Positions 17,426-35,467 of a stretch of DNA of 64,000 nt are shown here, in pieces. Source of the DNA: Escherichia coli (lineage in GTDB: Bacteria > Pseudomonadota > Gammaproteobacteria > Enterobacterales > Enterobacteriaceae); the NCBI RefSeq assembly GCF_003790525.1, contig NZ_CP033635.1; one strand, given 5' to 3'. Made by a program: the position numbers and the translations under genes. Position 1 is the stretch's first letter, and each line of letters begins with the position of its first letter. A model generated the notes under the pieces. It saw only the letters and a list, made by a program, of their open reading frames with translations, was not told the DNA's origin and did no database searches.

Positions 17426-20400
17426 ATGGTCAGTCAAACCAATGAACAAGCATTAGAGTCGGCCATTGAGAAATGTCTGGCTGGGATCAGTACTGAAGAG
17501 CTTAAAGAGGGACTGAGTCAGCAGTCACTGGGTGCTGGATACTTCATTGGTGCTGCTAGTGACTTTAATATGCAATATGCCATTGATGAACGTTTTTTCT
17601 GGCAATTTCTGCAAAAGACACAAGAAGTAGAGTTGGCCAAACTGCAAAAGAACAACCCCTCAGATTGGCAACGTAAGTTACTCGAACGATTTGACCGACT
17701 GATTAAGAAGCATGGCATTCTTCATTTACTTAAGAAAGGGCTAAGCGTAGACGATGCTCATTTCAATTTGCTCTATCCAGCCCCTTTGGCAAGTAGTAGT
17801 GAGAAGGTAAAGCAAAACTTTGCAGATAACGTGTTTAGTTGTACTCGCCAAGTGCGCTATTCCATGGTAAATCCCCTACAAGAAATCGACATGGTATTGT
17901 TTATCAACGGAATACCCTTGATAACGCTGGAGTTGAAGAACGCATGGACCGGGCAAACAGCACGTTATCACGGCCAAAAGCAGTATCGAGATGATCGGGA
18001 TGCAACTCAGCCATTGCTGACCTTTGGCCGCTGCCTAGTGCATATGGCGGTCGATACCGACGAAGTGTATATGACCACCAAGTTATCAGGTAGCAGTACA
18101 TTCTTCTTGCCGTTCAATAAAGGTCACAATCTTGGACAAGGCAACCCGCCGAATCCATCTGGCCATAAAACGGCATACCTATGGCAAGAAGTATTCACTA
18201 AAGACAGCTTGGCGAATATTATTCAGCATTTTGTGCGTCTGGATGGGTCAAGCAAAGATCCATTACCAAAGCGAACCCTGTTCTTTCCTCGATACCATCA
18301 ATTGGATGTGGTGAGAAAATTAGTAGACCATGCCGCCCAGCACGGTGTCGGTCAGACTTACTTAATTCAACACTCAGCCGGTTCAGGTAAGTCTAACTCG
18401 ATTACCTGGGCAGCTTATCAGCTAATTGAAACCTATCCTGCTTCGTCTGATGTGGCAGGCGGAAAAAGCTTGGAGCAGCCGTTGTTTGACTCTGTGATTG
18501 TGGTCACCGATAGACGCCTATTGGACAAGCAGCTGCGGGATAACATTAAAGAGTTTTCTGAAGTAAAGAACATTATTGCCCCAGCGAATAAGTCTTCTGA
18601 GCTTAAGCAGGCGCTGGAGAATGGCAAAAAGATTATTATAACGACGATTCAGAAATTCCCGTTCATTATTGATGGTATCGCCGATCTTAGTGACAAGCGC
18701 TTTGCAGTGATCATCGATGAAGCACACAGCTCACAGTCTGGTTCGGCGCATGACAATATGAACCGAGCGATGGGCAAGTCTGAAGTCGAAGAGGCAGAAG
18801 ATGCTCAGGATAAAATCCTTCAGGCGATGAGATCGCGTAAGATGCGCGGGAATGCGTCGTACCTGGCATTTACAGCGACACCAAAAAACAGCACTTTGGA
18901 GAAATTTGGTCAACGCCAAGAAGATGGCTCTTACAAGCCGTTTCACTTGTATTCGATGAAACAAGCCATTGAAGAAGGCTTCATCTTGGATGTGCTGGCA
19001 AATTATACGACGTACAAAAGTTATTATGAGATTGAGAAATCAATTGCTGATAACCCTGAGTTTGATACCAAAAAGGCGCAGAAAAAACTCAGAGCTTATG
19101 TAGAACGAAGCCAGCAAACAATTGATATCAAGGCAGAGATTATGCTGGAGCATTTTGTTCCGCATGTCGTGAATACGAAAAAGCTCAAAGGTAAAGGTAA
19201 AGGAATGGTGGTCACTCAAAATATTGAGGCGGCCATTCGATACTACAAAGCGATAAGGCGAATACTTGAGGAGCAAGGAAACCCGTTTAAAGTTGCCATT
19301 GCTTTCTCAGGAACCAAAGAAGTTGATGGTATTGAATATACCGAAGCAGATATTAATGGTTTTGCCGAGTCAGATACCAAAGATATGTTTGATACCGATG
19401 AGTATCGACTTTTAGTGGTTGCTAACAAGTATCTGACTGGGTTTGACCAGCCTAAGCTTTGCGCCATGTATGTAGATAAGAAGCTCGCCAGTGTCTTGTG
19501 TGTTCAGGCGCTATCTAGGCTCAATCGCAGTGCACCTAAGCTAGGGAAGAAAACAGAAGACTTGTTTATCCTGGATTTTTTCAACTCGGTTGAAGATATT
19601 CAATCAGCATTCGATCCTTTCTATACAGCAACGTCATTGTCCCAAGCTACAGATATAAACGTACTGCACGAGTTGAAAGATGAAATGGACGATGTCGGTG
19701 TGTACGAGTGGTATGAAGTTGAAGACTTTGTGACGCGTTATTTCAAGAATGAAGACGCCCAAACACTCAGTCCAATCATTGATATTGCCGCAGCGCGGTT
19801 TGACCATGAACTAGATCTTGAAGCTGAAGCTAAAGTGGACTTTAAGATTAAAGCCAAACAGTTCGTTAAAATCTATGGGCAGATGGCTTCTATCATGCCT
19901 TATGAAATGGTCAGCTGGGAAAAACTGTTTTGGTTCCTGAAGTTTTTAATACCGAAATTGAAAGTGGAAGATCCCGATGCTGATGCTATTGATGAGCTTC
20001 TCGATTCTGTCGATCTGAGTTCATACGGTTTGCAACGTGTGAAGCTTAACCACAGCATTAAACTTAGTGACCAAGAAGCGGAGCTTGATCCTCAAAATCC
20101 GAACCCACGTGGGGTGCATGGCGGTGAAAAAGAAACTGACCCGCTGGATGAAATCATTCGCACATTTAATGAGCGATGGTTCCAGGGCTGGAGTGCCACA
20201 CCTGAAGAGCAAAAGGTTAAGTTCGTGAACATCGCTGAAAGTATCCGCAATCACCCTGACTTCGAATCGAAATACAAAAACAACCCAGATCCCCATAATC
20301 GAGATTTGGCCTTCGAAAAAATGCTCAAGGAAATCATGCTGCAACGCCGTAAAGATGAACTTGAGCTCTACAAGTTGTTCGCAGGAGATTCAGCATTTAA

Positions 20401-20443
20401 AGCCTCGTGGACGCAAAGTATGCAACGAATGGTAGGTAGGTAG
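17426..20443 (+). CDS. hsdR: Type I restriction enzyme, endonuclease/translocase subunit HsdR
   Basis: 1005 aa; N-terminal PD-(D/E)xK (DMVLFINGIPLITLELK), SF2 helicase motifs GSGKS and DEAH. Confidence 0.85.
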   Translation: MVSQTNEQALESAIEKCLAGISTEELKEGLSQQSLGAGYFIGAASDFNMQYAIDERFFWQFLQKTQEVELAKLQKNNPSDWQRKLLERFDRLIKKHGILHLLKKGLSVDDAHFNLLYPAPLASSSEKVKQNFADNVFSCTRQVRYSMVNPLQEIDMVLFINGIPLITLELKNAWTGQTARYHGQKQYRDDRDATQPLLTFGRCLVHMAVDTDEVYMTTKLSGSSTFFLPFNKGHNLGQGNPPNPSGHKTAYLWQEVFTKDSLANIIQHFVRLDGSSKDPLPKRTLFFPRYHQLDVVRKLVDHAAQHGVGQTYLIQHSAGSGKSNSITWAAYQLIETYPASSDVAGGKSLEQPLFDSVIVVTDRRLLDKQLRDNIKEFSEVKNIIAPANKSSELKQALENGKKIIITTIQKFPFIIDGIADLSDKRFAVIIDEAHSSQSGSAHDNMNRAMGKSEVEEAEDAQDKILQAMRSRKMRGNASYLAFTATPKNSTLEKFGQRQEDGSYKPFHLYSMKQAIEEGFILDVLANYTTYKSYYEIEKSIADNPEFDTKKAQKKLRAYVERSQQTIDIKAEIMLEHFVPHVVNTKKLKGKGKGMVVTQNIEAAIRYYKAIRRILEEQGNPFKVAIAFSGTKEVDGIEYTEADINGFAESDTKDMFDTDEYRLLVVANKYLTGFDQPKLCAMYVDKKLASVLCVQALSRLNRSAPKLGKKTEDLFILDFFNSVEDIQSAFDPFYTATSLSQATDINVLHELKDEMDDVGVYEWYEVEDFVTRYFKNEDAQTLSPIIDIAAARFDHELDLEAEAKVDFKIKAKQFVKIYGQMASIMPYEMVSWEKLFWFLKFLIPKLKVEDPDADAIDELLDSVDLSSYGLQRVKLNHSIKLSDQEAELDPQNPNPRGVHGGEKETDPLDEIIRTFNERWFQGWSATPEEQKVKFVNIAESIRNHPDFESKYKNNPDPHNRDLAFEKMLKEIMLQRRKDELELYKLFAGDSAFKASWTQSMQRMVGR

Positions 20444-20461
20444 GTAGAAAGGAGTGATGGT

Positions 20462-20590
20462 TTGCTGAAGGCAGTCTCAGAGTTATTAGGTGGGTCACCA
20501 GGCCTGAAAGGACGTCAAATTGCCAAGGAGCTGGGGCTGGATAAGTCACAAGTGAACTCGTTTCTTCACAAACACCAGGATACGTTTTGA
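20462..20590 (+). pseudogene. truncated small ORF (winged-HTH-like) downstream of hsdR, ended by the terminal TGA of the IS911 left end
   Basis: RBS AAAGGAG then TTG; encodes LLKAVSELLGGSPGLKGRQIAKELGLDKSQVNSFLHKHQDTF; stop supplied by IS terminus at 20588-20590. Confidence 0.35.
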
Positions 20591-20933
20591 AGTGGCACAC
20601 TGAATTTGGCCACCTGAACAGAGGTGATATGCTCACCTCAGAACAACACAGGTGCTCCAATGAAAAAAAGAAATTTCAGCGCAGAGTTTAAACGCGAATC
20701 CGCTCAACTGGTTGTTGACCAGAACTACACGGTGGCAGATGTCGCCAAAGCTATGGATGTTGGCCTTTCCACAATGACAAGATGGGTCAAACAACTGCGT
20801 GATGAGCGTCAGGGCAAAACACCAAAAGCCTCTCCGATAACACCAGAACAAATCGAAATACGTGAGCTGAGGAAAAAGCTACAACGCATTGAAATGGAGA
20901 ATGAAATATTAAAAAAGGCTACTGTAGATTCAA
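20588..20933 (+). mobile_element. IS911-like element, 5' part (left IR and orfA), truncated by IS30
   Basis: Terminus TGAAGTGGCACACTGAATTTGGCCACC; Orf[52 protein letters not shown]... from ATG 20660, diverges after ...ILKKAT. Confidence 0.75.
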
Positions 20934-21685
20934 TCTGTCAATGCAACACCCCTTTCAATTATCTCTTTCGGTGTTTTGAACTTCAGTGTCTTTCTCGGTC
21001 TGTTGTTTAGCTGAGCAGCAACCAGATCTAGTTCATGTTGAGTATATTGGGCAAGACATGTCTTTTTAGGAAAGTACTGCCGAATTAGCCCATTTGTGTT
21101 CTCATTTGTTCCCCGCTGCCAAGGACTCTGAGGATCGCAGAAGTAAACTTTAACGCCGGTGCTGACAGTAAATTCTAGATGTCTGGCCAGTTCCATTCCT
21201 CTGTCCCATGTCAGTGATTTTCTGAGTTCTGACGGTAAACTCAGGAATTTGTCGGTAAGAGCCTGATTTACTGAGACAGAATCTTTGCCCCTGAGTCTAA
21301 GGATGATCGTATAACGTGATTTTCGGTCTACAAGTGTGGCTATATGAGAGTTTTTTGTACCTGAGACTAAATCGCCCTCCCAATGCCCCAGAGAGCGTCT
21401 GTTATCGATATTTCGGGAACGTTCGTGAATTGGTGTTCCGTTCACTATGTTAATCGTACCTCTTTCGCCTTTGCGGGTATGACGCCTGCCATGGCGAAGG
21501 CTATGCGACCGTCGCAGATGCTGTATATTCAGGTGGTGTAGCGCTTCACGGCTACGAAAGTACAGCGTTTTATAAATTGTCTCAGGTGATATTCGCAGCG
21601 TTTTTTGACGTGGTTTTGTTCGCCTTAACCATCCTGATATTTGCTCTGGAGACCATTTCATCTCCAGCTTTTCCAGAACAAGGTA
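20926..21685 (-). mobile_element. IS30 fragment (3' about 60 percent, including right end), inserted into IS911 orfA
   Basis: Minus-strand product matches IS30 transposase from ...LVLEKLEMKWSPEQISGWL... to C-terminus; N-terminal HTH region absent. Confidence 0.8.
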
Positions 21686-22250
21686 AGCGTAAACCGACCG
21701 CCGTATGTAGCCATTAGACAAGAATTGGTAACTTAGACGCCCATCTGACACAGACGGACATCTAAGTATGGAATTACAGGACTGGCGAAAAGAACCTCTA
21801 AAAAGTATTCGAATGAATTCAAACTTCGTATGATTGACTGGCATCACAACCCGGTGCTTGTGTGGCCCAGATTGCTCGAGAAAATGGCGTCAATGATAAT
21901 GTTATTTTCAAATGGCTCAGACTTTGGCAAAACGAAGGGCGTATATCGCGGCGTCTTCCGGTAACAACCTCTTCTGACACTGGCGTTGAATTATTACCTG
22001 TGGAGATAACGCCGGATGAGCCGCAAGAACCGGTGGCTGCTCTTACTCCGTCTTTATCCACCCAGACTACTGTCAGTGCCAGCTCCTGCAAGGTGGAGTT
22101 CCGTCACGGTAACATGACGCTGGAAAATCCTTCACCAGATCTGCTCACAGTGTTGCTCCGTGAACTGAGCGGGAGGGGACAATGATCTCACTCCCGTCAG
22201 GTACCCGCATCTGGCTGGGTGCCGGCATTACCGATATGCGTAAATCCTTC
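21686..22250 (+). mobile_element. IS66-family remnant (frameshifted orfA, truncated orfB start)
   Basis: ...AQIARENGVNDNVIFKWLRLWQNEGR... and MISLPSGTRIWLGAGITDMRKSFNG then premature stop; boundaries approximate. Confidence 0.6.
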
Positions 22251-22997
22251 AACGGATACGACATATGCTGAAGGAGGAGCAGTAATGGATTAAGTGATAA
22301 CAAATGCCCAGAAATAGAGGTTTAAATCCTGCTTAGTTAGTACATAAATACTATTTTGATGAAAATTATTATATGTCACCTCGGATTTTAATCAGGCGCC
22401 CAGATTAAATCAAGTATTGAGCGCCTGATTATGTTTATTCATTAATATCTGTCATTGATTGTCTTATTATCAGTTACCCCCGTCTTAATCAGAGTTTTCA
22501 TTTATTTTTAATGCATAATCAGATGCCGCCTCATCATTATCCTCAGTATTATCATAGCCGAAAACTTCTCCCGGGCACGGGCGTTCACGATAATAGTCAT
22601 CGTTATAGTTTTCATCGTCAGATAATGATATGTCGTATTCTGAATATGATTCACCACAATTATACATAAAATCATCTCCTTTGGGATTGTTACAATAATT
22701 AGTGAGTTTATTCGAAAAAATAATGAGCGCCAGACCAATCCACCCGACTTTTGATTATAATCATGAAGATACCTGTCTCAGTACAAATAGAATCAAACTC
22801 AATACAGCATGATTCACCTTTATATTCTCTCAGGGAAACCAAATACCACTATTCAACTATTAAGAATAAAATTCTGGAGGTGCGATTATCTGAAGATACC
22901 TGCATCCTAAATAATTTCAGACAGATATTATCTCCGTGAATCCCCCGCCACCTTTCCGGTGCGCGGGGTTTTGTCTTTTTTCACCGGGAATACATGT

Positions 22998-23870
22998 ATG
23001 AATCCGTCTGATGCCATTGAGGCAATTGAAAAACCACTGGCCTCCCTGCCTAATTCGCTTTCCCGCCATATCCTCGAACATCTGCGCAAACTCACCAGCC
23101 ACGAACCCGTGATTGGCATTATGGGTAAAAGCGGGGCCGGTAAATCCTCACTCTGTAATGCACTGTTTCAGGGGGAGGTCACCCCGGTCAGTGATGTTCA
23201 CGCCGGCACCCGGGAAGTGCGGCGCTTCCGTCTGAGTGGCCACGGTCACAGCATGATTATCACTGACCTGCCCGGGGTGGGCGAGAGCCGGGACAGGGAT
23301 GCAGAGTATGAAGCCCTGTACCGTGACATTCTGCCTGAACTTGACCTGGTACTGTGGCTGATTAAAGCCGATGACCGTGCCCTGTCTGTGGATGAGTATT
23401 TCTGGCGACACATCCTGCACCGGGGACATCAGCAGGTGCTGTTTGTGGTGACGCAGGCCGACAAAACGGAGCCCTGCCATGAATGGGATATGGCCGGCAT
23501 TCAGCCTTCTCCCGCACAGGCACAGAACATTCGTGAGAAAACAGATGCGGTATTCCGGCTGTTCCGGCCCGTACATCCGGTTGTGGCCGTATCGGCCCGC
23601 ACCGGCTGGGAACTGGATACGCTGGTCAGTGCGCTCATGACAGCACTTCCCGACCATGCCGCCAGTCCCCTGATGACCCGCCTGCAGGACGAGCTGTGCA
23701 CGGAATCTGTCCGGGGGCAGGCCCGTGAACAGTTTACCGGTGCGGTGGACCGGATATTTGACACGGCGGAGAGCGTCTGTGTTGCCTCTGTGGCTCGTAC
23801 GGTTCTGCGTGCCGTCCGTGACACGGTGGTCTCTGTTGCCCGCGCTGTATGGAACTGGATTTTCTTCTGA
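22998..23870 (+). CDS. island-associated GTPase (YeeP/YkfA/YfjP family)
   Basis: MNPSDAIEAIEKPL... with P-loop GIMGKSGAGKSS. Confidence 0.75.
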   Translation: MNPSDAIEAIEKPLASLPNSLSRHILEHLRKLTSHEPVIGIMGKSGAGKSSLCNALFQGEVTPVSDVHAGTREVRRFRLSGHGHSMIITDLPGVGESRDRDAEYEALYRDILPELDLVLWLIKADDRALSVDEYFWRHILHRGHQQVLFVVTQADKTEPCHEWDMAGIQPSPAQAQNIREKTDAVFRLFRPVHPVVAVSARTGWELDTLVSALMTALPDHAASPLMTRLQDELCTESVRGQAREQFTGAVDRIFDTAESVCVASVARTVLRAVRDTVVSVARAVWNWIFF

Positions 23871-23984
23871 ACAGTCTGCCAGGGGAAATGCCTGATTACA
23901 TTGCGTTAACCAACTGAAAACATGACACAAACACCTCATCCCCCTCCTGTTTCTCTTGCGTGACTGCCTTGCTGTTAATAGAAC

Positions 23985-24030
23985 AAAACGATCAATAAGA
24001 CAGGTGTCGATCGTTGCCATCGATCGTTTG
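23985..24030 (+). promoter_or_regulatory. antigen 43 phase-variation switch: three clustered Dam GATC sites (OxyR operator region)
   Basis: GATC at 23990, 24009 and 24022, about 220 bp upstream of the flu start codon. Confidence 0.55.
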
Positions 24031-24242
24031 TAGTGGTTAATGGTCTGCGAAAAGGCAGCTGAATCTCTTCATCATGCATAACGGAATTGCACACAACGGA
24101 CTGATACTTCTCTGGCGGATGAGAGAGGGAAAGCATTTATGTCCGGGAAAAACCACTTTATCTGACCATGCTGTTTTGTACCTGCCGGTATCCACTTTTG
24201 TGGGTACCGGCTTTTTTATTCACCCTCTGTAAGGAAAAGCTG

Positions 24243-27089
24243 ATGAAACGACATCTGAACACCAGCTACAGGCTGGTATGGAATCACATTACGGGCACCC
24301 TGGTGGTGGCTTCCGAACTGGCGCGCTCACGGGGAAAACGCACCGGTGTGGCGGTTGCACTGTCTCTTGCTGCTGTCACATCAGTCCCGGCACTGGCTGC
24401 TGACACGGTTGTACAGGCGGGAGAAACCGTGAACGATGGAACACTGACAAATCATGACAACCAGATTGTCTTCGGTACGGCCAACGGAATGACCATCAGT
24501 ACCGGGCTGGAGTATGGGCCGGATAACGAGGCCAATACCGGCGGACAATGGATACAAAATGGCGGTATCGCCAACAACACTACTGTCACCGGTGGTGGTC
24601 TTCAGAGAGTGAATGCCGGAGGAAGCGTTTCAGACACGGTTATCAGTGCCGGAGGCGGACAGAGCCTTCAGGGGCAGGCAGTGAATACCACTCTGAACGG
24701 CGGTGAGCAGTGGGTACATGAAGGCGGGATTGCAACGGGTACCGTCATTAATGAGAAGGGCTGGCAGGCCGTCAAATCCGGCGCAATGGCAACCGACACG
24801 GTTGTGAATACCGGCGCGGAAGGGGGACCGGATGCAGAAAATGGTGATACCGGGCAGTTTGTTCGCGGAAATGCCGTACGCACCACCATCAATAAAAATG
24901 GTCGTCAGATTGTGGCTGCTGAAGGAACGGCAAATACCACTGTGGTTTATGCCGGCGGCGACCAGACTGTACATGGTCACGCACTGGATACCACGCTGAA
25001 TGGGGGGTACCAGTATGTGCACAACGGCGGTACGGCGTCTGGCACTGTTGTAAACAGTGACGGCTGGCAGATTATCAAGGAAGGTGGTCTGGCGGATTTC
25101 ACCATCGTTAACCAGAAAGGCAAACTGCAGGTGAACGCCGGTGGTACAGCCACGAATGTCACCCTGAAGCAGGGAGGCGCACTGGTCACCAGTACGGCGG
25201 CAACCGTCACCGGCAGCAACCGTCTGGGCAATTTCACTGTGGAAAACGGTAATGCTGACGGTGTTGTTCTGGAGTCCGGTGGTCGCCTGGATGTACTGGA
25301 GGGCCATTCAGCCTGGAAAACACTGGTGGATGACGGCGGAACCCTGGCAGTGTCTGCCGGTGGTAAGGCAACAGATGTCACCATGACATCCGGTAGTGCC
25401 CTGATTGCAGACAGTGGTGCCACTGTTGAGGGGACCAATGCCAGCGGTAAGTTCAGTATTGATGGCACATCCGGTCAGGCCAGCGGACTGCTGCTGGAAA
25501 ATGGCGGCAGCTTTACGGTTAATGCCGGAGGACTGGCCAGCAACACCACTGTCGGACATCGTGGAACACTGACGCTGGCTGCCGGGGGAAGTCTGAGTGG
25601 CAGAACACAGCTCAGTAAAGGCGCCAGTATGGTACTGAATGGTGATGTGGTCAGTACCGGCGATATTGTTAACGCAGGAGAGATTCACTTTGATAATCAG
25701 ACGACACAGGAAGCCGCGCTGAGCCGTGCTGTTGCAAAAGGCGACGCCCCGGTAACGTTCCATAAACTGACAACCAGTAACCTCACCGGCCAGGGCGGCA
25801 CCATCAATATGCGTGTTAGCCTTGATGGCAGCAATGCCTCTGACCAGCTGGTGATTAATGGTGGTCAGGCAACCGGCAAAACCTGGCTTGCGTTTACAAA
25901 TGTCGGGAACAGCAACCTCGGTGTGGCAACCACCGGACAGGGTATCCGGGTTGTGGATGCACAGAATGGCGCCACCACAGAAGAAGGTGCGTTTGCCCTG
26001 AGTCGCCCGCTTCAGGCCGGCGCCTTTAACTACACCCTGAACCGTGACAGCGATGAAGACTGGTACCTGCGCAGTGAAAATGCTTATCGTGCTGAAGTCC
26101 CCCTGTATACATCCATGTTGACACAGGCAATGGACTATGACCGGATTCTGGCAGGCTCCCGCAGCCATCAGATCGGTGTAAACGGTGAAAATAACAGCGT
26201 CCGTCTCAGCATTCAGGGCGGTCATCTCGGTCACGATAACAACGGCGGTATTGCCCGTGGAGCCACGCCGGAAAGCAGCGGCAGCTATGGCTTCGTCCGT
26301 CTGGAGGGTGACCTGCTCAGAACAGAGGTTGCCGGTATGTCTCTGACGACAGGGGTGTATGGTGCTGCAGGCCATTCTTCCGTTGATGTTAAGGATGATG
26401 ACGGTTCCCGCGCCGGCACGGTCCGGGATGATGCCGGCAGCCTGGGCGGATACCTGAATCTGACACACACGTCCTCCGGCCTGTGGGCTGACATTGTGGC
26501 ACAGGGAACCCGCCACAGCATGAAAGCGTCATCGGACAATAACGACTTCCGCGCCCGGGGCTGGGGCTGGCTGGGCTCACTGGAAACCGGTCTGCCCTTC
26601 AGTATCACTGACAACCTGATGCTGGAACCACAACTGCAGTATACCTGGCAGGGACTCTCCCTGGATGACGGCCAGGATAACGCCGGTTATGTGAAGTTCG
26701 GGCATGGCAGTGCACAACATGTGCGTGCCGGTTTCCGTCTGGGCAGCCACAACGATATGAGCTTTGGTGAAGGCACCTCATCCCGTGACACCCTGCGCGA
26801 CAGTGCAAAACACAGTGTGAGTGAACTGCCGGTGAACTGGTGGGTACAGCCTTCTGTTATCCGCACCTTCAGCTCCCGGGGTGACATGAGCATGGGTACA
26901 GCTGAAGCCGGCAGTAACATGACGTTCTCACCGTCACAGAATGGCACGTCACTGGACCTGCAGGCCGGACTGGAAGCCCGTGTCCGGGAAAATATCACTC
27001 TGGGCGTTCAGGCCGGTTATGCCCACAGCGTCAGCGGCAACAGCGCTGAAGGCTATAACGGTCAGGCCACGCTGAATGTGACTTTCTGA
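24243..27089 (+). CDS. flu: antigen 43 (Ag43) self-associating autotransporter adhesin
   Basis: Extended autotransporter signal peptide MKRHLNTSYRLVWNHITG..., repetitive beta-helix passenger, C-terminal beta-barrel ending ...ATLNVTF. Confidence 0.85.
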   Translation: MKRHLNTSYRLVWNHITGTLVVASELARSRGKRTGVAVALSLAAVTSVPALAADTVVQAGETVNDGTLTNHDNQIVFGTANGMTISTGLEYGPDNEANTGGQWIQNGGIANNTTVTGGGLQRVNAGGSVSDTVISAGGGQSLQGQAVNTTLNGGEQWVHEGGIATGTVINEKGWQAVKSGAMATDTVVNTGAEGGPDAENGDTGQFVRGNAVRTTINKNGRQIVAAEGTANTTVVYAGGDQTVHGHALDTTLNGGYQYVHNGGTASGTVVNSDGWQIIKEGGLADFTIVNQKGKLQVNAGGTATNVTLKQGGALVTSTAATVTGSNRLGNFTVENGNADGVVLESGGRLDVLEGHSAWKTLVDDGGTLAVSAGGKATDVTMTSGSALIADSGATVEGTNASGKFSIDGTSGQASGLLLENGGSFTVNAGGLASNTTVGHRGTLTLAAGGSLSGRTQLSKGASMVLNGDVVSTGDIVNAGEIHFDNQTTQEAALSRAVAKGDAPVTFHKLTTSNLTGQGGTINMRVSLDGSNASDQLVINGGQATGKTWLAFTNVGNSNLGVATTGQGIRVVDAQNGATTEEGAFALSRPLQAGAFNYTLNRDSDEDWYLRSENAYRAEVPLYTSMLTQAMDYDRILAGSRSHQIGVNGENNSVRLSIQGGHLGHDNNGGIARGATPESSGSYGFVRLEGDLLRTEVAGMSLTTGVYGAAGHSSVDVKDDDGSRAGTVRDDAGSLGGYLNLTHTSSGLWADIVAQGTRHSMKASSDNNDFRARGWGWLGSLETGLPFSITDNLMLEPQLQYTWQGLSLDDGQDNAGYVKFGHGSAQHVRAGFRLGSHNDMSFGEGTSSRDTLRDSAKHSVSELPVNWWVQPSVIRTFSSRGDMSMGTAEAGSNMTFSPSQNGTSLDLQAGLEARVRENITLGVQAGYAHSVSGNSAEGYNGQATLNVTF

Positions 27090-27111
27090 TAATCAGGTCA
27101 CTCCCCTTCAG

Positions 27112-27140
27112 GCCCCGGTCATCATGACCGGGGCTTTTTA
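27112..27140 (+). terminator. rho-independent terminator after flu
   Basis: GCCCCGGTCAT-c-ATGACCGGGGC hairpin followed by TTTTT. Confidence 0.6.
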
Positions 27141-27415
27141 CTTTCAGGGAGCAACAGATATGCCGGGTTGTACATCACGTTTATTGCCGAAGGCTCTTTT
27201 GCTGCCAAATGGCATCTGAATCGTTCACAATTTGGCCGGTTATTGCCCGATCCCGATGGGGTTATTGGGTGATCTCCTTCCATAAAAATACGCAGCTCGC
27301 CAGTGAAGGGCTTCTCAGACAATAAACGTCATTCATTTCGTCCATCAGGCCGCGTCTTCTCCGGGAGACGCGGCTTTTTCATTTATACCGCTAACTCATT
27401 CATAAGGAATAAATC

Positions 27416-28234
27416 ATGCGATTAGCCAGTCGTTTTGGTTATGCGAACCAGATACGCCGTGACCGCCCCTTAACCCGTGAAGAACTGATGCAGGTCGTCC
27501 CCAGCGTATTCGGGGAAGAGAAACACACATCCAGAAGCGAGAACTATACCTGGATCCCCACCATCACCGTGCTGGAAAGCCTGCAGCGGGAAGGCTTCCA
27601 ACCATTCTTCGCCTGCCAGACCCGCGTGCGCGACCCGGGCCGCCGGGGATACACCAAACACATGCTGCGTCTGCGCCGTGACGGGGAGATAAACGGACAA
27701 CATGTCCCTGAAATCATCCTGCTGAACTCCCATGACGGTACCTCCAGCTACCAGATGCTGCCGGGTTACTTCAGGTTCGTCTGCCAGAACGGATGCGTCT
27801 GTGGTCAGTCTCTGGGGGAAGTGCGTGTTCCACACCGGGGAGACGTAGTGGAGAAAGTTATCGAAGGGGCTTACGAGGTGGTGGGGGTTTTTGACCGGAT
27901 TGAGGAGAAGCGTGATGCCATGCAGTCGCTGGTCCTGCCGCCACCGGCACGCCAGGCGCTGGCACAGGCGGCACTGACTTACCGTTATGGTGACGAACAT
28001 CAGCCCGTCACCACTGCTGACATTCTGACACCGCGACGCCGGGAGGATTACGGTAAGGACCTGTGGAGCGCATATCAGACCATCCAGGAGAATATGCTGA
28101 AAGGCGGGATTTCCGGTCGCAGTGCCAGAGGAAAACGTATCCATACCCGTGCCATTCACAGCATCGACACGGACATTAAGCTCAATCGCGCATTGTGGGT
28201 GATGGCAGAAACACTGCTGAAGAGTATGCGCTGA
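27416..28234 (+). CDS. DUF932-family island protein (YfjQ/YafZ-like)
   Basis: 272 aa, recalled similarity to CP4-prophage YfjQ/YafZ proteins. Confidence 0.6.
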   Translation: MRLASRFGYANQIRRDRPLTREELMQVVPSVFGEEKHTSRSENYTWIPTITVLESLQREGFQPFFACQTRVRDPGRRGYTKHMLRLRRDGEINGQHVPEIILLNSHDGTSSYQMLPGYFRFVCQNGCVCGQSLGEVRVPHRGDVVEKVIEGAYEVVGVFDRIEEKRDAMQSLVLPPPARQALAQAALTYRYGDEHQPVTTADILTPRRREDYGKDLWSAYQTIQENMLKGGISGRSARGKRIHTRAIHSIDTDIKLNRALWVMAETLLKSMR

Positions 28235-28324
28235 TGCCTTTTCCCTGAAAGCGCAGTTCTGACTCATGTCCGTCCCTGCCCCGCGACTTCTTCCATTCAT
28301 TTACTTTTTATAAGGAATAATCTC

Positions 28325-28810
28325 ATGACAACCGTTTTGCATAATTCCACCACACCTTCTGTTTCCGTAACCGCTGTATCAGAGAATAACCCGCCTCAAC
28401 TGGTTGCCACCCTCGTCCCTGATGAACAGCGCATCAGCTTCTGGCCGCAGCATTTTGGCCTCATTCCACAGTGGGTGACCCTGGAGCCCCGTGTCTTCGG
28501 CTGGATGGACCGTCTGTGCGAAGACTACTGCGGTGGTATCTGGAATCTGTACACCCTGAACAACGGCGGGGCATTTATGGCACCCGAACCGGATGACGAT
28601 GATGACGAAACATGGGTACTGTTCAGTGCCATGAACGGTAACCGCGCTGAAATGAGCCCCGAAGCCGCCGGCATTGCTGCCTGTCTGATGACGTACAGCC
28701 ATCATGCCTGTCGTACGGAGTGTTATGCCATGACGGTCCATTATTACCGGCTGCGGGATTACGCCCTGCAGCATCCGGAATGCAACGCCATTATGCGCAT
28801 CATTGACTGA
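28325..28810 (+). CDS. antirestriction protein, KlcA/ArdB-like (YfjX/YafX family)
   Basis: 161 aa, characteristic ...WVTLEPRVFGWMDRLCEDYCGGIWNLYTLNNGGAFMAP... Confidence 0.7.
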   Translation: MTTVLHNSTTPSVSVTAVSENNPPQLVATLVPDEQRISFWPQHFGLIPQWVTLEPRVFGWMDRLCEDYCGGIWNLYTLNNGGAFMAPEPDDDDDETWVLFSAMNGNRAEMSPEAAGIAACLMTYSHHACRTECYAMTVHYYRLRDYALQHPECNAIMRIID

Positions 28811-28824
28811 AAGGGGCCGGAACA

Positions 28825-29301
28825 ATGCAACAGCTTTCCTTTCTGCCCGGAGAAATGACAACCAGAGAGCGCAGCCTCATTCAGCGGGCCCTGAAAACCC
28901 TGGACCGCCATCTTCATGAACCCGGCGTGGCCTTCACCTCCACGCATGCGGCACGGGAGTGGCTGATTCTGAACATGGCGGGACTGGAGCGGGAAGAGTT
29001 CCGGGTGCTGTATCTGAACAACCAGAATCAGCTGATTGCCGATGAAACCCTCTTCACCGGCACCATCAACCGCACGGAAGTCCATCCCCGTGAAGTGATT
29101 AAACGCGCCCTGTATCACAATGCCGCTGCTGTGGTGCTGGCACACAATCACCCGTCCGGTGAAGTCACACCCAGCAAGGCAGACCGCCTTATCACGGAAC
29201 GTCTGGTACAGGCACTGGCCCTGGTGGATATCCGGGTACCGGACCATCTGATAGTTGGTGGCAACCAGGTTTTCTCCTTTGCGGAACACGGTCTGCTTTA
29301 A
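28825..29301 (+). CDS. RadC-like JAB-domain protein (YeeS/YkfG family)
   Basis: JAMM motif HNHPSGEVTPSKADRLIT. Confidence 0.8.
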   Translation: MQQLSFLPGEMTTRERSLIQRALKTLDRHLHEPGVAFTSTHAAREWLILNMAGLEREEFRVLYLNNQNQLIADETLFTGTINRTEVHPREVIKRALYHNAAAVVLAHNHPSGEVTPSKADRLITERLVQALALVDIRVPDHLIVGGNQVFSFAEHGLL

Positions 29302-29369
29302 CCCGTCACCGTTACAACCACATCACACCTGTTTTCACTTTTATCTTCTGTCTTCAGAGGTATCCCACT

Positions 29370-29591
29370 ATGAAAATCATCACCCGTGGCGAAGCCATGC
29401 GTATTCATCAACAACATCCTGCATCCCGTCTTTTCCCGTTCTGTACCGGCAAATACCGCTGGCACGGCAGCACTGAAGCGTATACCGGTCGTGAAGTGCA
29501 GGATATTCCCGGTGTGCTGGCCGTGTTTGCTGAACGCCGTAAGGACAGTTTTGGCCCATATGTCCGGTTGATGAGCGTCACCCTGAACTGA
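29370..29591 (+). CDS. DUF987 protein (YeeT/YkfH-like)
   Basis: 73 aa MKIITRGEAMRIHQQHPASRLFPFCTGKYRWHGS... Confidence 0.65.
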   Translation: MKIITRGEAMRIHQQHPASRLFPFCTGKYRWHGSTEAYTGREVQDIPGVLAVFAERRKDSFGPYVRLMSVTLN

Positions 29592-29670
29592 GTCTGGAAG
29601 GGCATTCAGATGAGCAGAATTATCGCCACCACCGGACCATTCTTAACCGATTTTCTGTGAGGACTTTATC

Positions 29671-30039
29671 GTGTCAGACACACTGCCCGGGACAACGCAT
29701 CCCGACAACAACAACGACCGCCCCTGGTGGGGGCTGCCCTGCACCGTGACGCCCTGTTTCGGGGCACGTCTGGTGCAGGAGGGTAACCGGTTGCATTACC
29801 TTACAGACCGCGCCGGTATCAGAGGGCGGTTCAGCGATGCGGATGCGAACCATCTGGACCAGGCCTTTCCGCTGCTGATGAAACAACTGGAACTCATGCT
29901 CACCAGCAGTGAACTGAATCCCCACCGTCAGAATACCGTCACGCTGTATGTTAAAGGGCTGACCTGCCATGCGGACACCCTCGGCAGCTGTGGTTACGTT
30001 TATCTGGCTGTTTATCCGACGCCCGAAATGAAAAATTAA
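29671..30039 (+). CDS. cbeA: type IV TA system antitoxin CbeA (YeeU family)
   Basis: 122 aa [44 protein letters not shown]... Confidence 0.8.
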
Positions 30040-30128
30040 CTCTCCAGAATAGCCTTCTGCTACGGCCTGGTGCTTTCACCACGCCACTTTTCCATTTTTC
30101 ATCTCTGCATATCAGGAAAATCTTCAGT

Positions 30129-30512
30129 ATGAAAACATTACCTGTATTACCCGGGCAGGCGGCCAGTTCACGCCCGTCTCCGGTTGAAATCTGGCAGACA
30201 CTGCTCACCCGACTGCTGGACCAGCACTACGGCCTTACGCTGAATGACACACCGTTCGCCGATGAACGTGTGATTGAGCAGCATATTGAAGCTGGCATTT
30301 CACTGTGTGATGCGGTGAACTTTCTCGTTGAAAAATACGCACTGGTACGTACCGACCAGCCGGGATTCAGCGCCTGTACCCGCTCTCAGTTAATAAACAG
30401 TATTGATATTCTCCGGGCTCGCCGGGCAACCGGCCTGATGACCCGCGACAATTACAGAACGGTAAATAACATTACCCTGGGTAAGCATCAGGAGTCGAAA
30501 CGATGCAACTGA
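30129..30512 (+). CDS. cbtA: type IV TA system toxin CbtA (YeeV family)
   Basis: 127 aa [48 protein letters not shown]... Confidence 0.8.
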
Positions 30513-30991
30513 CCCTGACACTGGAAGCCGACAGCGTTAACGTACAGGCACTGAATATGGGGCGAATTGTCGTTGACATTGATGGTGTTAATCTCGCTGA
30601 ACTGATTAACATGATCTGCGATAACGGCTACTCCCTTCGTGTTGTTGATGAATCTGACCGGACCTCAGCAGACTGCACGCCACCATTTGCTGCCCTTACC
30701 GGCATACGCTGCAGTACCGCACATATCACGGAAACGGACAACACCTGGCTGTACTCGCTGTCGCATCAGACGAATGACACCGGCGAATCAGAATGGATTC
30801 ATTTTACAGGCAGAGGGTATCTGTTACGTACCGATGCTTTGTCGTATCCGGTGCTACACCTTAAACGTCTGGGCCTGTCAAAAACCTTCCGCCGTCTGGT
30901 TGTCACTCTCATCCGGCGTTATGGCGTCAGTCTTATTCATCTGGATGCCAGCGCCGGGTGTCTGCCGGATTTACCCACTTTCGACTGGTAA
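30503..30991 (+). CDS. YeeW-like island protein
   Basis: 162 aa; overlaps cbtA stop; follows cbeA-cbtA as in CP4 prophages. Confidence 0.6.
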
Positions 30992-31002
30992 CCAGAAACA
31001 AC

Positions 31003-31200
31003 ATGAAATCATTAACCACGGAAACAGCGCTGGATATTCTGATTGCGTGGCTGCAGGACAATATCGACTGTGAATCCGGAATTATCTTTGACAACGATGA
31101 GGATAAAACGGATTCGACAGCCCTGTTGTCCTGTATTGAACAGGCCAGGGAGGATATCCGTACCCTGCGCCAACTGCAGCTTCAGCCCCCGAACCGGTGA
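31003..31200 (+). CDS. small hypothetical island protein (65 aa)
   Basis: ORF MKSLTTETALDILIAWLQDN...; no family recognised. Confidence 0.35.
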   Translation: MKSLTTETALDILIAWLQDNIDCESGIIFDNDEDKTDSTALLSCIEQAREDIRTLRQLQLQPPNR

Positions 31201-31296
31201 GTTTCACTCATCATCTCACTCACCAGACTTCATTCCACTGACGCCAGCCTGAACAGGGCTGGCGTTTTCATTTATCTGCAAAAAGGAATATCGATT

Positions 31297-32142
31297 ATGT
31301 CTGATATCACAGCCTCCCGTCCGGAAGTAGTCAACGGGCATACGGACGTTATCTGCTCAACCAGTATCCGCCACATTCTGGCTGTACGAAAAAGTACACT
31401 GCTGCAAATCAACACACTTATCCGGCAACTGGCTGAAATCTCAGCAATGACAGAAAGTATTGGCGGTAAAACCGCACTGGACTGGGCGATGAAACAGGAT
31501 TTTCGCTGTGGCTGCTGGCTCATGGAGAAACCTGAAACGGCAATGAAAGCCATCACACACAATCTCGATCGTGAAATCTGGCGTGACTTGATGCAACGTT
31601 CCGGGATGCTTTCCTTAATGGATGCACAGGCCCGTGAGACATGGTACCGGTCACTGGAGTACGATAATTTTCCGGAAATCAGCGAAGCGAACATCCTGAG
31701 CACATTTGAACAACTGCACCAGAATAAGGATGAGGTGTTTGAGCGAGGGGTGATCAACGTCTTCAGAGGGCTGAACTGGAATTACAAAACCAATTGCCCC
31801 TGTAAATTTGGCAGTAAAATTATCGTCAACAATCTGGTGAGATGGGACCGGTGGGGATTTCATCTTATCACCGGACAACAGGCTGACCGACTCGCCGATC
31901 TGGAAAGAATGTTGCACCTGTTCAGCGGTAAACCAATCCCCGACAATCGGGAAAACATCACTATTCGTCTGGATGAGCACATTCAGTCTGTTCAGGGTAA
32001 AGAGAGCTATGAAGATGAGATGTTCAGCATCAGATACTTTAAGAAGGGCTCCGCGCATATCACATTCAGAAAACCAGAACTGGTTGATCGGCTAAATGAC
32101 ATCATTGCAAAGCGTTATCCGGGACAATTATCAGCCATCTGA
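31297..32142 (+). CDS. hypothetical island protein (281 aa), tRNA-proximal
   Basis: Long clean ORF; no family assignable with confidence. Confidence 0.45.
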   Translation: MSDITASRPEVVNGHTDVICSTSIRHILAVRKSTLLQINTLIRQLAEISAMTESIGGKTALDWAMKQDFRCGCWLMEKPETAMKAITHNLDREIWRDLMQRSGMLSLMDAQARETWYRSLEYDNFPEISEANILSTFEQLHQNKDEVFERGVINVFRGLNWNYKTNCPCKFGSKIIVNNLVRWDRWGFHLITGQQADRLADLERMLHLFSGKPIPDNRENITIRLDEHIQSVQGKESYEDEMFSIRYFKKGSAHITFRKPELVDRLNDIIAKRYPGQLSAI

Positions 32143-32240
32143 GTCAGATGGAAAAAAGCTTACCTGACCCATTACCTGACCCAATTCAAAGGAAAAAGAA
32201 AAAGGGTTAGCTGGTTTATTAGCTAACCCTTTGTTGTGTA

Positions 32241-32316
32241 TGGTGGCCCCTGTTGGGTTTGAACCAACGACCAAGCGATTATGAGTCGCCTGCTCTAACC
32301 ACTGAGCTAAGGGGCC
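32241..32316 (-). tRNA. ileX: tRNA-Ile (anticodon CAU, lysidine-type), island integration site
   Basis: Reverse complement GGCCCCTTAGCTCAGTGGTTAGAGCAGGCGACTCATAATCGC...GGGGCCACCA; adjacent to mug as in E. coli. Confidence 0.85.
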
Positions 32317-32440: not shown

Positions 32441-32947
32441 ATGGTTGAGGATATTTTGGCTCCAGGGTTACGGGTCGTGTTTTGCGGTATCAACCCTGGG
32501 CTTTCATCCGCCGGGACTGGTTTTCCCTTTGCTCATCCGGCAAATCGCTTCTGGAAGGTGATATATCAGGCCGGGTTTACCGACCGTCAGTTGAAGCCGC
32601 AGGAGGCACAGCATCTGCTGGATTATCGTTGTGGCGTCACCAAACTGGTAGACCGTCCAACGGTGCAAGCCAATGAAGTTTCAAAGCAGGAGCTGCACGC
32701 AGGCGGGCGTAAGCTAATTGAAAAAATAGAAGATTATCAGCCGCAGGCGTTGGCGATTCTGGGCAAACAAGCATATGAACAGGGATTCAGCCAGCGCGGT
32801 GCACAGTGGGGGAAACAAACGCTCACCATTGGTTCGACGCAGATTTGGGTGCTGCCAAATCCCAGCGGTTTAAGTCGCGTTTCACTGGAGAAACTGGTTG
32901 AAGCGTATCGCGAGCTGGACCAGGCGCTGGTAGTGCGTGGCTTGTGA
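32441..32947 (+). CDS. mug: G/U mismatch-specific DNA glycosylase
   Basis: 168 aa [39 protein letters not shown]... Confidence 0.9.
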
Positions 32948-33003
32948 AGTACAGTGTAACGAAGTTATGAGCGGGCCAGGCACCGCTCCTCACCGCTACT
33001 GGC

Positions 33004-33567
33004 TTATTCTTCCGCCAAACGGTCTCTGACTACCATAAGCGCAAATCCCAGCAGATTTTTCCCCTTCCAGTGAGATGGCACACCGGCATGGGGATGATCT
33101 TTTGCAAGGCCAATCCCCCAGATTTTATCCACCGGGCTGGCTTCAACCAGAATGCGAGGCTGCGTATTCAGCAGGAATGTTTTTAATGCCGAATGTTGGC
33201 TAAATTTATGGTAGTTCCCTTCGCAGACCAGATCAAAGCAGCAAGCTTGCCAGCATTGCTCGTCAAAGTTTGTCACCTGTCGCCCCAGCTTTTTGGCTTC
33301 TGCCGGGGTCGCCGCCGCCAGAATTCTGGCAAGTGTTTTACTGTCATTAAACAGCCGCGCTTTTCCCGCCATCATCCAGTGTTCTGCGGTGGCATAGGTT
33401 ATACCATCATAGGTAAAAGGCGAACCCTGCCACCACTGGCTAAAGCAAGAGGCGGTAATTTCGTGATTCGCGGCAGGTTGATGGCCCCAGAACCACAGGT
33501 ATTTCACCTTTTTCCCGGCATCGAGAGCGGAAATAAGGGCGGGGAGAGAGTAGTATCCTTGCTGCAT
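33004..33567 (-). CDS. NADAR/YbiA-like (DUF1768) protein
   Basis: 187 aa with YbiA-like segments (AEHWMMAGKARLF; DKIWGIG...GKNLLGFALMVVRDRL); own RBS after rpoD terminator. Confidence 0.55.
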   Translation of the reverse strand: MQQGYYSLPALISALDAGKKVKYLWFWGHQPAANHEITASCFSQWWQGSPFTYDGITYATAEHWMMAGKARLFNDSKTLARILAAATPAEAKKLGRQVTNFDEQCWQACCFDLVCEGNYHKFSQHSALKTFLLNTQPRILVEASPVDKIWGIGLAKDHPHAGVPSHWKGKNLLGFALMVVRDRLAEE

Positions 33568-33579
33568 TGCCAGATTTCC

Positions 33580-33608
33580 TTAAAAAAAAGCCCTCACGAT
33601 GGAGGGCT
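33580..33608 (-). terminator. rho-independent terminator downstream of rpoD
   Basis: Minus strand GCCCTCcatcgtgaGGGC followed by TTTTTTTT. Confidence 0.6.
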
Positions 33609-33625
33609 TATGCACATCTTTACAA

Positions 33626-35467
33626 TTAATCGTCCAGGAAGCTACGCAGCACTTCAGAACGGCTCGGGTGACGCAGTTTGCGCAGCGCCTTCGCTTCGAT
33701 CTGACGGATACGTTCGCGGGTAACGTCGAACTGTTTACCCACTTCTTCCAGCGTGTGGTCGGTGTTCATATCGATACCGAAACGCATACGCAGAACTTTC
33801 GCTTCACGCGCGGTCAGGCCAGCCAGCACGTCGTGCGTTGCCGCACGCAGGCTTTCGGTGGTCGCAGAATCCAGCGGCAGCTCGAGGGTGGTATCCTCGA
33901 TGAAATCCCCCAGATGCGAATCTTCATCATCACCGATCGGCGTTTCCATGGAGATTGGCTCTTTGGCGATCTTCAGCACTTTGCGGATCTTGTCTTCCGG
34001 CATCAGCATACGTTCAGCCAGTTCTTCCGGCGTCGGTTCACGGCCCATCTCTTGCAGCATCTGGCGAGAAATACGGTTGAGTTTGTTGATAGTCTCAATC
34101 ATATGCACCGGAATACGGATGGTGCGCGCCTGATCCGCGATAGAACGGGTGATCGCCTGACGGATCCACCAGGTTGCGTAGGTGGAGAACTTGTAACCAC
34201 GGCGGTATTCGAATTTATCAACCGCTTTCATCAGGCCGATGTTACCTTCCTGAATCAGGTCAAGGAACTGCAAGCCACGGTTGGTGTATTTCTTGGCGAT
34301 AGAAATAACCAGACGTAAGTTCGCTTCAACCATCTCTTTCTTCGCACGGCGGGCTTTTGCTTCACCGATGGACATACGACGGTTGATATCTTTAACCTGC
34401 TCGATGGTCAGGCCGGTTTCTTCTTCAATCTGCTGCAGTTTCTGCAGGGCGCGATGCACTTCTTCAGAGACATCGTGCAGTTTTTCCGACCACGGCTTGT
34501 TCATCGCAATTGCCGCGTTGAACCAGGTATCGCTGGTTTCGTTGCCGGTAAACAGGGTAATGAAGTTTTTCTTCGGCATTTTGCACTGCTCAACGCAGAG
34601 CTTCATGATCAGACGTTCTTGCGTACGAACGCGGTCCATCATGACGCGCATGCTGTTGACCAGGTAGTCAAACTGCTTCGGCACCAGGCGGAACTGTTTA
34701 AATACTTCAGACAGTTTCAGGATCTCTTCCTGAGCAGCAGCGTGACTGCGACCTTTCGCTTTGATGGTGTCACGCGTTACAACGTACTGAGCGCGCAGTT
34801 CCGCAAATTTTTCGCGAGCCAGTTCCGGGTCGATGCTGTTGTCATCATCGGCGCTGTCGTCATCGCCATCTTCTTCGTCTTCATCTTCGTCATCGTCCAG
34901 ATCTTCCTGGGAAAGCTCAGAACCGACGTGAGTGGCGGTAGGTGCCAGATCTTCTTCTGCGTTCGGGTCAACAAAGCCGGTGATCAGATCGGACAGACGC
35001 GCTTCTTCTGCTTCAACACGATCGTACTGTTCCAGCAGATAGGTGATCGCTTCCGGATATTCAGCAACGGAGCATTGAACCTGGTTGATCCCGTCTTCAA
35101 TACGCTTAGCGATGTCAATTTCGCCTTCGCGGGTCAACAGTTCAACGGTGCCCATTTCACGCATGTACATGCGTACCGGGTCAGTCGTGCGCCCGATTTC
35201 AGATTCCACGCTGGAAAGCACCTGCGCGGCGGCTTCGGCAGCATCTTCGTCCGCGGTGTTTTCAGCCAGCATCAGATCATCGGCATCCGGTGCTTCTTCC
35301 ATCACCTGAATGCCCATGTCGTTGATCATTTGGATGATGTCTTCGATCTGATCTGAATCGACGATATCTTCCGGCAGATGGTCATTGACCTCGGCATAGG
35401 TCAGATAGCCTTGCTCCTTACCACGGGTGACAAGAAGTTTCAGCTGTGACTGCGGGTTTTGCTCCAT
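33626..35467 (-). CDS. rpoD: RNA polymerase sigma-70 factor
   Basis: 613 aa [55 protein letters not shown]... Confidence 0.95.

Follow-up and report, generated by a model that had tools for sequence, protein, structure and literature searches.

The gene that lies between rpoD and mug in this stretch of the Escherichia coli chromosome (64,000 nucleotides, called the window here) is, by its sequence and position, the sigma-70-linked NADAR that has already been published; the finding is correct but not new. We think it quite probable that the full explanation runs as follows. The product would be a stand-alone NADAR, a base-ADP-ribose N-glycosidase, expressed by read-through from rpoD, and the gene would be an old one that most E. 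coli have lost. The identity of the protein, its fold, its conserved catalytic residues, its distribution, its synteny and the selection acting on it are all taken from the present analysis. The features of the locus are these:

33004..33567, minus strand: coding sequence of the sigma-70-linked NADAR, 187 aa with an ATG start (ORF list and Pfam NADAR).
33576..33581, minus strand: Shine-Dalgarno-like AAGGAA with an 8-nt spacer to the NADAR ATG at 33567 (read from the sequence).
33582..33609, minus strand: intrinsic terminator of rpoD, 8-bp stem, 6-nt loop and U8 tract (terminator scans and sequence).
33626..35467, minus strand: rpoD, encoding sigma-70, with its stop codon at 33628-33626 (translation and RefSeq annotation of identical or near-identical loci).
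32441..32947, plus strand: mug, encoding the G/U mismatch-specific DNA glycosylase (Pfam UDG, E=1.6e-23, and RefSeq annotation).
32941..33624, no strand assigned: 684-bp segment that sets the window haplotype apart from the K-12 type (pairwise alignment with W3110-P).

The initial annotation described a 187-aa ORF between rpoD and mug, and the frame is indeed intact and gives a full Pfam NADAR match. Upstream of it, and on its own strand, lies rpoD, the last gene of the rpsU-dnaG-rpoD operon, and all three of those genes are annotated upstream on the NADAR strand in identical or near-identical loci in RefSeq. Its downstream neighbour, mug, is convergent, and the 684-bp variable segment takes in the last two codons of mug and its stop codon. 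Reading along the minus strand, the stop codon of rpoD is followed by the hairpin AAGCCCTC-CATCGT-GAGGGCTT and then a T8 run (33609-33582), by AAGGAA, by 8 nt and by the ATG. Since the elements come in that order, it is literally true that the gene has its own RBS immediately after the rpoD terminator.

The NADAR start lies 14 nt past the U-tract of that terminator, and consensus scans of the 840 bp upstream of the gene in the window found no promoter-like sigma-70 site. We reject a promoter of its own on the basis of those empty scans, and from the two observations together we infer that transcription reading through the terminator of the rpsU-dnaG-rpoD operon probably gives the gene a low level of expression. 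The scans behind this reading are all consensus scans; a non-consensus promoter may lie inside the 3' end of rpoD. The published description has the gene 'integrated into' the operon (PMC11125620), whereas in the window a conserved intrinsic terminator parts it from rpoD, and read-through would refine that description. After the gene there is no canonical terminator, and the folding of the NADAR-mug spacer is no stronger than that of shuffled sequence (z = -0.48).

This arrangement is not peculiar to the window. In seven of seven syntenic loci from six genera (E. coli GF43, Salmonella, Superficieibacter, Intestinirhabdus, Limnobaculum and Leminorella are among the loci) the rpoD-NADAR spacer of 57-90 nt contains a G+C-rich hairpin, a U-run and then a Shine-Dalgarno-like site, which is AAGGAA, GGAG or AGGAA ahead of the NADAR start. 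The hairpin keeps its position from genus to genus, with a stem of different sequence. The N-terminus of the protein, MQQG or MPQG, is conserved in all seven as well.

The product was first called NADAR/YbiA-like from the letters alone, and domain searches agree. Pfam NADAR (PF08719) matches with 182.2 bits (cutoff 35.1; E=1.2e-53) and covers profile positions 7-162 of 163. It is a single domain over residues 31-184, with no fused domain. NCBIfam TIGR02464, 'riboflavin biosynthesis intermediates N-glycosidase', matches with 162.5 bits against a cutoff of 73.7, but it is a domain-level model (equivalog_domain) that does not separate subfamilies. An AF2 model built on 60 homologues has a pLDDT of 95.5 and is predicted to contain the YbiA-like alpha-helical core fold, preceded by an N-terminal extension of about 25 residues in which the model places a helix at 8-16 and a strand at 23-26. 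The best PDB matches found by Foldseek are 8BAU (TM 0.75) and 2B3W (TM 0.70-0.77), at about 30% identity, and there was no further PDB match with E<1. By sequence the nearest structures are again 8BAU, with 62.7 bits, and E. coli YbiA 2B3W, with 51 bits.

The active site is conserved. In a HMMER alignment to 8BAU, residues E62, K69 and E142 fall on E43, K50 and E125 of the Phytophthora nicotianae NADAR, which coordinate the distal ribose and the phosphate and take part in catalysis (Schuller et al. 2023, PMC11543638). All three are invariant in the 60 homologues, as are W27, W46, K92, D147 and W150. The catalytic position that distinguishes between kinds of NADAR is Glu142, which is Asp in the DarT1-linked NADARs and His in phage NADARs. 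We rejected a phage gp30.3-type NADAR since the residue is Glu and not His, the context is one of chromosomal core genes and the match to PHROG 1017 is domain-level. Between diverged NADAR alleles dN/dS is 0.07-0.10, a sign of strong purifying selection on the gene.

The window protein is identical to WP_001183949.1 of strain SC516, where the DNA also matches at 100% and is annotated 'NADAR family protein'. Strain E2348/69 carries WP_001183948.1 at the same locus, and the two proteins share 185 of 187 residues (98.9%). In their supplement Cihlova et al. (2024, Toxins 16:208, PMC11125620) give WP_001183948.1 as the 'bacterial stand-alone' NADAR for E. coli, and their methods describe the construct as 'EPEC NADAR (residues 1-187)'. 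That work describes the sigma-70-linked subtype as tied to the genes for sigma-70, primase and S21 (rpoD, dnaG and rpsU). Window and EPEC proteins agree in locus (rpsU-dnaG-rpoD / mug), in length and in nearly every residue. On artificial ssDNA substrates the purified EPEC NADAR removed ADP-ribose from guanosine and not from thymidine, and in E. coli it gave partial rescue from DarT1, less well than the cognate antitoxin (PMC11125620). These two results, hydrolysis of G-ADPr in vitro and partial DarT1 rescue, are what our explanation takes from the literature, and the biochemical mechanism proposed below rests on the published assays because the protein assayed there is 98.9% identical to this one. 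For the same reason we are not describing a new kind of system. A literature search by guessed locus tags gave no match.

The two differences from the EPEC protein are T78 and C104 in the window, where E2348/69 has I78 and R104. Cys104 (codon at about 33256-33258) is unusual. The residue is Arg in other E. coli alleles, Salmonella and Intestinirhabdus, and Leu, Ile or Val in Superficieibacter, Limnobaculum and Leminorella.

The annotation of the gene in databases suggests a different function, that it is a second YbiA. In that case it would be a metabolite damage-control N-glycosidase acting on reactive early riboflavin intermediates, and nucleic-acid de-ADP-ribosylation in vitro would be a side activity. 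The name and score of TIGR02464 speak for this, PGAP has given the name 'ybiA' to the NADAR gene in several genomes, the catalytic glutamate E142 is of the YbiA type rather than Asp or His, and the fold matches YbiA. The TIGR02464 score is far enough above its cutoff that a small-molecule substrate has to be kept in mind. Nevertheless we consider the riboflavin reading improbable. K-12 YbiA belongs to the same superfamily and shares the core fold and the catalytic glutamate, but it is just ~29% identical, the window protein has the N-terminal extension of ~25 residues, and 8BAU scores better than 2B3W. Orthology with K-12 YbiA (b0798) was rejected given this low identity, the 51 bits and the different locus; as far as the sequences tell, the window NADAR is a paralogue of K-12 ybiA and not its orthologue. 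In K-12, ybiA sits in a LexA-controlled operon with dinG, and YbiA gave no DarT1 rescue (PMC11125620). The near-identical EPEC protein, by contrast, acts on G-ADPr DNA and protects partially in vivo, and we found no riboflavin-intermediate assay for the sigma-70-linked subfamily in the NADAR literature that was searched.

The neighbours of orthologous genes in other phyla bear on the same question. Conservation of the subfamily is striking; members that are 55-65% identical to the window protein occur in Bacteroidota, Streptomyces, Acinetobacter and others. We examined 74 orthologous loci by clustering the nearest ORFs and scanning one representative per cluster with Pfam. The recurrent neighbours were Tpt1/KptA (10 loci), ADP-ribosylglycohydrolase or Macro-ARH fusions (6), NAMPT (6), microbial PARG (5), a PRPP-synthetase-like protein (4) and NrtR (3). 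They are often on the same strand and overlapping or a few bases away, for example in Bacteroidota and in a Limnohabitans MAG. It is from such an association with ADP-ribose and NAD genes that NADAR takes its name. Every identified cluster was an ADP-ribose or NAD gene and no riboflavin gene was found among the recurrent neighbour clusters identified in the 74 loci. These neighbours support an ADP-ribose-related role over riboflavin damage control.

Some NADARs are known as DarT1 antitoxins (PMC11543638), so one can also ask whether this gene is an antitoxin or another part of a toxin-antitoxin or anti-phage system, such as DarT1-NADAR, PADLOC PDC-M42 or DS-32. We consider this very improbable. 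The protein does match PADLOC PDC-M42C (E=4.5e-40), but that match is domain-level, and its weak match to the NCBIfam DS32_2 anti-phage NADAR model scores 31.3 bits, far under the cutoff of 240. Membership in DS-32 or PDC-M42 was rejected on that score and on the lack of adjacent partner genes. The neighbours are rpoD and mug only, with no adjacent ADP-ribosyltransferase or other partner gene in E. coli or in 7 other genera. The DarT1-associated NADAR antitoxins DarG1 and BC4488 are of the same superfamily, and the EPEC protein is published as carrying out the same guanine-ADPr reaction in vitro. Unlike them, the sigma-70-linked NADAR has no adjacent DarT, its catalytic residue is Glu and not the Asp of DarT1-linked NADARs, and in its EPEC form it gives weaker protection from DarT1 than the cognate antitoxin does (PMC11125620).

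Two further relatives are NADARs of other organisms. The P. nicotianae protein (8BAU) is like the window protein in being stand-alone, in having an N-terminal extension and in its E/K/E active site, although it is eukaryotic and 30% identical. The other is SCO5665 (ScNADAR) of Streptomyces coelicolor; homologues from Streptomyces show 55-60% identity along almost the whole protein. The residues W71, E87, K117, E167, D172 and W175 named for SCO5665 (PMC12945103) correspond to W46, E62, K92, E142, D147 and W150 here, a mapping made with a constant offset of 25 and not by alignment to SCO5665 itself. In S. coelicolor SCO5665 pairs functionally with the ADP-ribosyltransferase (ART) ScARP, while in E. 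coli no ART partner is known and none is adjacent. A 2026 paper assigns SCO5665 and an 'E. coli NADAR', which it also tested, to the NADAR family proper, and reports that members of this family remove both G-ADPr and C-ADPr from DNA and RNA (PMC12945103).

We return to the stand-alone N-glycosidase as our preferred explanation. This small enzyme would bind ADP-ribose attached to a nucleobase and then hydrolyse the bond between ribose and base, so that unmodified guanine, and probably cytosine as well, would be restored in DNA or RNA. The conserved set Glu62 / Lys69 / Glu142 is the putative catalytic apparatus. As for the physiological substrate, the most likely role would be that of a housekeeping safeguard with no paired toxin, one that reverses the modification of bases by ADP-ribosyltransferases that are foreign or unlinked.

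How widespread the gene is limits what kind of safeguard it could be. By megablast it is present in 62 of 5426 complete E. coli genomes (1.1%). In all 62 it is single-copy, chromosomal and at the rpoD-mug site, and 57 of the 62 copies are at least 99% identical to the window gene. Carriers include SMS-3-5, E2348/69, SC516, GF43 and FDAARGOS_144; the first two we take to belong to phylogroups F and B2. A gene that is dispensable in ~99% of complete E. coli genomes is not likely to have an essential housekeeping role. STEC O157:H7 has been named among the carriers of the sigma-70-linked NADAR (PMC11125620). None of the 61 carrier records listed from complete RefSeq genomes has an O157:H7 label, and the two O157:H7-labelled records among the matches listed are both without the gene.

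In genomes without the gene, an 801-bp query matches at its rpoD and mug edges and nowhere else. In K-12 (W3110-P) an unrelated 84 bp, containing a REP-like element and a different rpoD terminator, stands in place of the 684 bp. The statement in the initial annotation that rpoD and mug are almost adjacent in K-12 was accurate; in W3110-P they are 78 bp apart with nothing between them. The comparison of the rpoD-mug interval across E. coli, suggested as the way to check the initial annotation, thus finds the gene absent from K-12 and from most strains, and the claim of a strain-variable gene in a conserved neighbourhood holds. What we cannot support as it was put is the word 'insertion', given that there are no mobile-element flanks and that the gene order is the same in other genera.

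Some observations on the surroundings belong here. In E2348/69 mug is a pseudogene with an internal stop (4448-4954 of the fetched locus) next to an intact NADAR gene, and no Mug homologue was detected in the fetched Limnobaculum and Leminorella loci (Budviciaceae). For these two reasons we reject a coupling of NADAR and mug; a functional pair is unlikely. On the other side of mug the window has a CP4-like genomic island at about 20000-32240, with genes for an Ag43/Cah adhesin, a GTPase, DUF4942 and DUF932 proteins, an IS30 and CbtA/YeeU-like proteins. It abuts a tRNA at 32241-32316 (minus strand) that ARAGORN calls tRNA-Met (anticodon CAT) and RefSeq, for an identical gene, calls tRNA-Ile. 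We take it to be ileX, with a lysidine-modified CAU anticodon. The carriers SC516, E2348/69, GF43 and FDAARGOS_144 lack the island and have nfeF directly after the tRNA, which makes the island independent of the NADAR gene. Among the matches listed, no complete RefSeq genome pairs a 100%-identical island with a 100%-identical NADAR allele.

The history of the gene is best read from other taxa. The order dnaG-rpoD-NADAR-mug recurs in several complete genomes of E. fergusonii (found through cluster membership, their proteins being in the same 90% cluster as the window protein), in some Salmonella enterica, as named by the source (96% protein identity), in Superficieibacter (80%) and in Intestinirhabdus alba (74%). 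Citrobacter sp. R56, in a locus that is cut short, has NADAR-mug (77%), and Limnobaculum and Leminorella of the Budviciaceae have rpoD-NADAR (67%). Among the matches listed, most species representatives of the Enterobacteriaceae are without the gene.

The rival history is that a few E. coli lineages gained the gene recently by horizontal insertion, and in its favour just 1.1% of complete genomes carry it. For the main E. coli allele dS is a low 0.02-0.03 between carriers with dnaG alleles up to dS 0.06 apart, and transfer into this exact site does happen, as we describe below. We still consider it unlikely, and this judgement is about the history only. The borders of the 684-bp segment show neither repeats nor an integrase or IS, and a mobile-element insertion was rejected for the lack of mobility features there and the absence of the nearby island from other carriers. 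The same position and terminator-RBS layout are found in E. fergusonii and six other genera from two families. NADAR dS against Superficieibacter and Intestinirhabdus is saturated just as it is in the flanks, and between E. coli and E. fergusonii the NADAR divergence (dS 0.26) is at the species level and not below that of dnaG and rpoD. The saturated dS and the conserved layout favour an old rpoD-linked gene, mostly lost in E. coli and occasionally exchanged as a cassette. 'Insertion' is probably wrong as the direction of change; loss of such an old gene from most E. coli is at least as likely as gain.

The exchange can be seen in the divergence of individual genes. Between E. coli and Salmonella dS is 0.25 for NADAR, 1.32 for dnaG, 0.48 for rpoD and 1.82 for mug, and between E. 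coli and E. fergusonii it is 0.26, 0.12-0.13, 0.16 and about 0.97 in the same order; these values come from single representatives and, for NADAR, from a gene of 187 codons, which makes the large contrasts alone reliable. In the Salmonella carriers NADAR is 94% identical to E. coli in nucleotides, compared with about 78-80% for dnaG and mug. Identity is ~90-96% from the end of rpoD through NADAR to ~170 bp inside the 3' end of mug, and beyond that block it falls to ~70%. The low NADAR dS and this block of high identity indicate that the Salmonella carriers hold an Escherichia-grade allele, which presumably reached them when the core genes on its flanks underwent homologous recombination.

A second case is found within E. 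coli. The GF43 allele is 93.6% identical to the window gene, with a dS of 0.11 to E. fergusonii versus 0.25 to other E. coli, while its flanks are 97-100% identical to E. coli. This is consistent with import of about 750 bp (locus about 4950-5700). At least one transfer of a NADAR allele across species is visible. In E. fergusonii the dS of mug, about 0.97 against 0.12-0.17 for dnaG and rpoD, points to a recombination breakpoint inside mug, the 5' two-thirds of which (window 32441-32780) has 75-82% nucleotide identity between E. coli and E. fergusonii. Past mug, E. fergusonii has different neighbours, either selB and glycine-reductase genes or a prophage.

Four NADAR types have been described in E. 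coli, and the sigma-70-linked NADAR is one of them. To what was published (PMC11125620) this analysis makes a modest addition: the carrier frequency of 1.1% among complete genomes, an rpoD-terminator-NADAR layout that is conserved in two families of enterobacteria, the strong purifying selection on the gene and clear evidence of homologous recombination carrying the cassette from one species to another. There is a bolder version of our explanation which we offer tentatively, as we think it somewhat more apt to fail than to hold. Rather than being a plain member of the macromolecular-synthesis operon, the gene would stay behind the rpoD terminator across the Enterobacterales, with read-through setting the dose of the enzyme, and it would be an ancient core-linked cassette, repeatedly lost and then re-supplied from one species to another (Escherichia to Salmonella, and an E. 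fergusonii-like allele into E. coli) when DNA recombines within rpoD and the 3' end of mug. If this is true, there would be a standing, low-level nucleic-acid de-ADP-ribosylation repair tied to sigma-70 expression, and the patchy retention of NADAR would track exposure to ART toxins that target guanine or cytosine.
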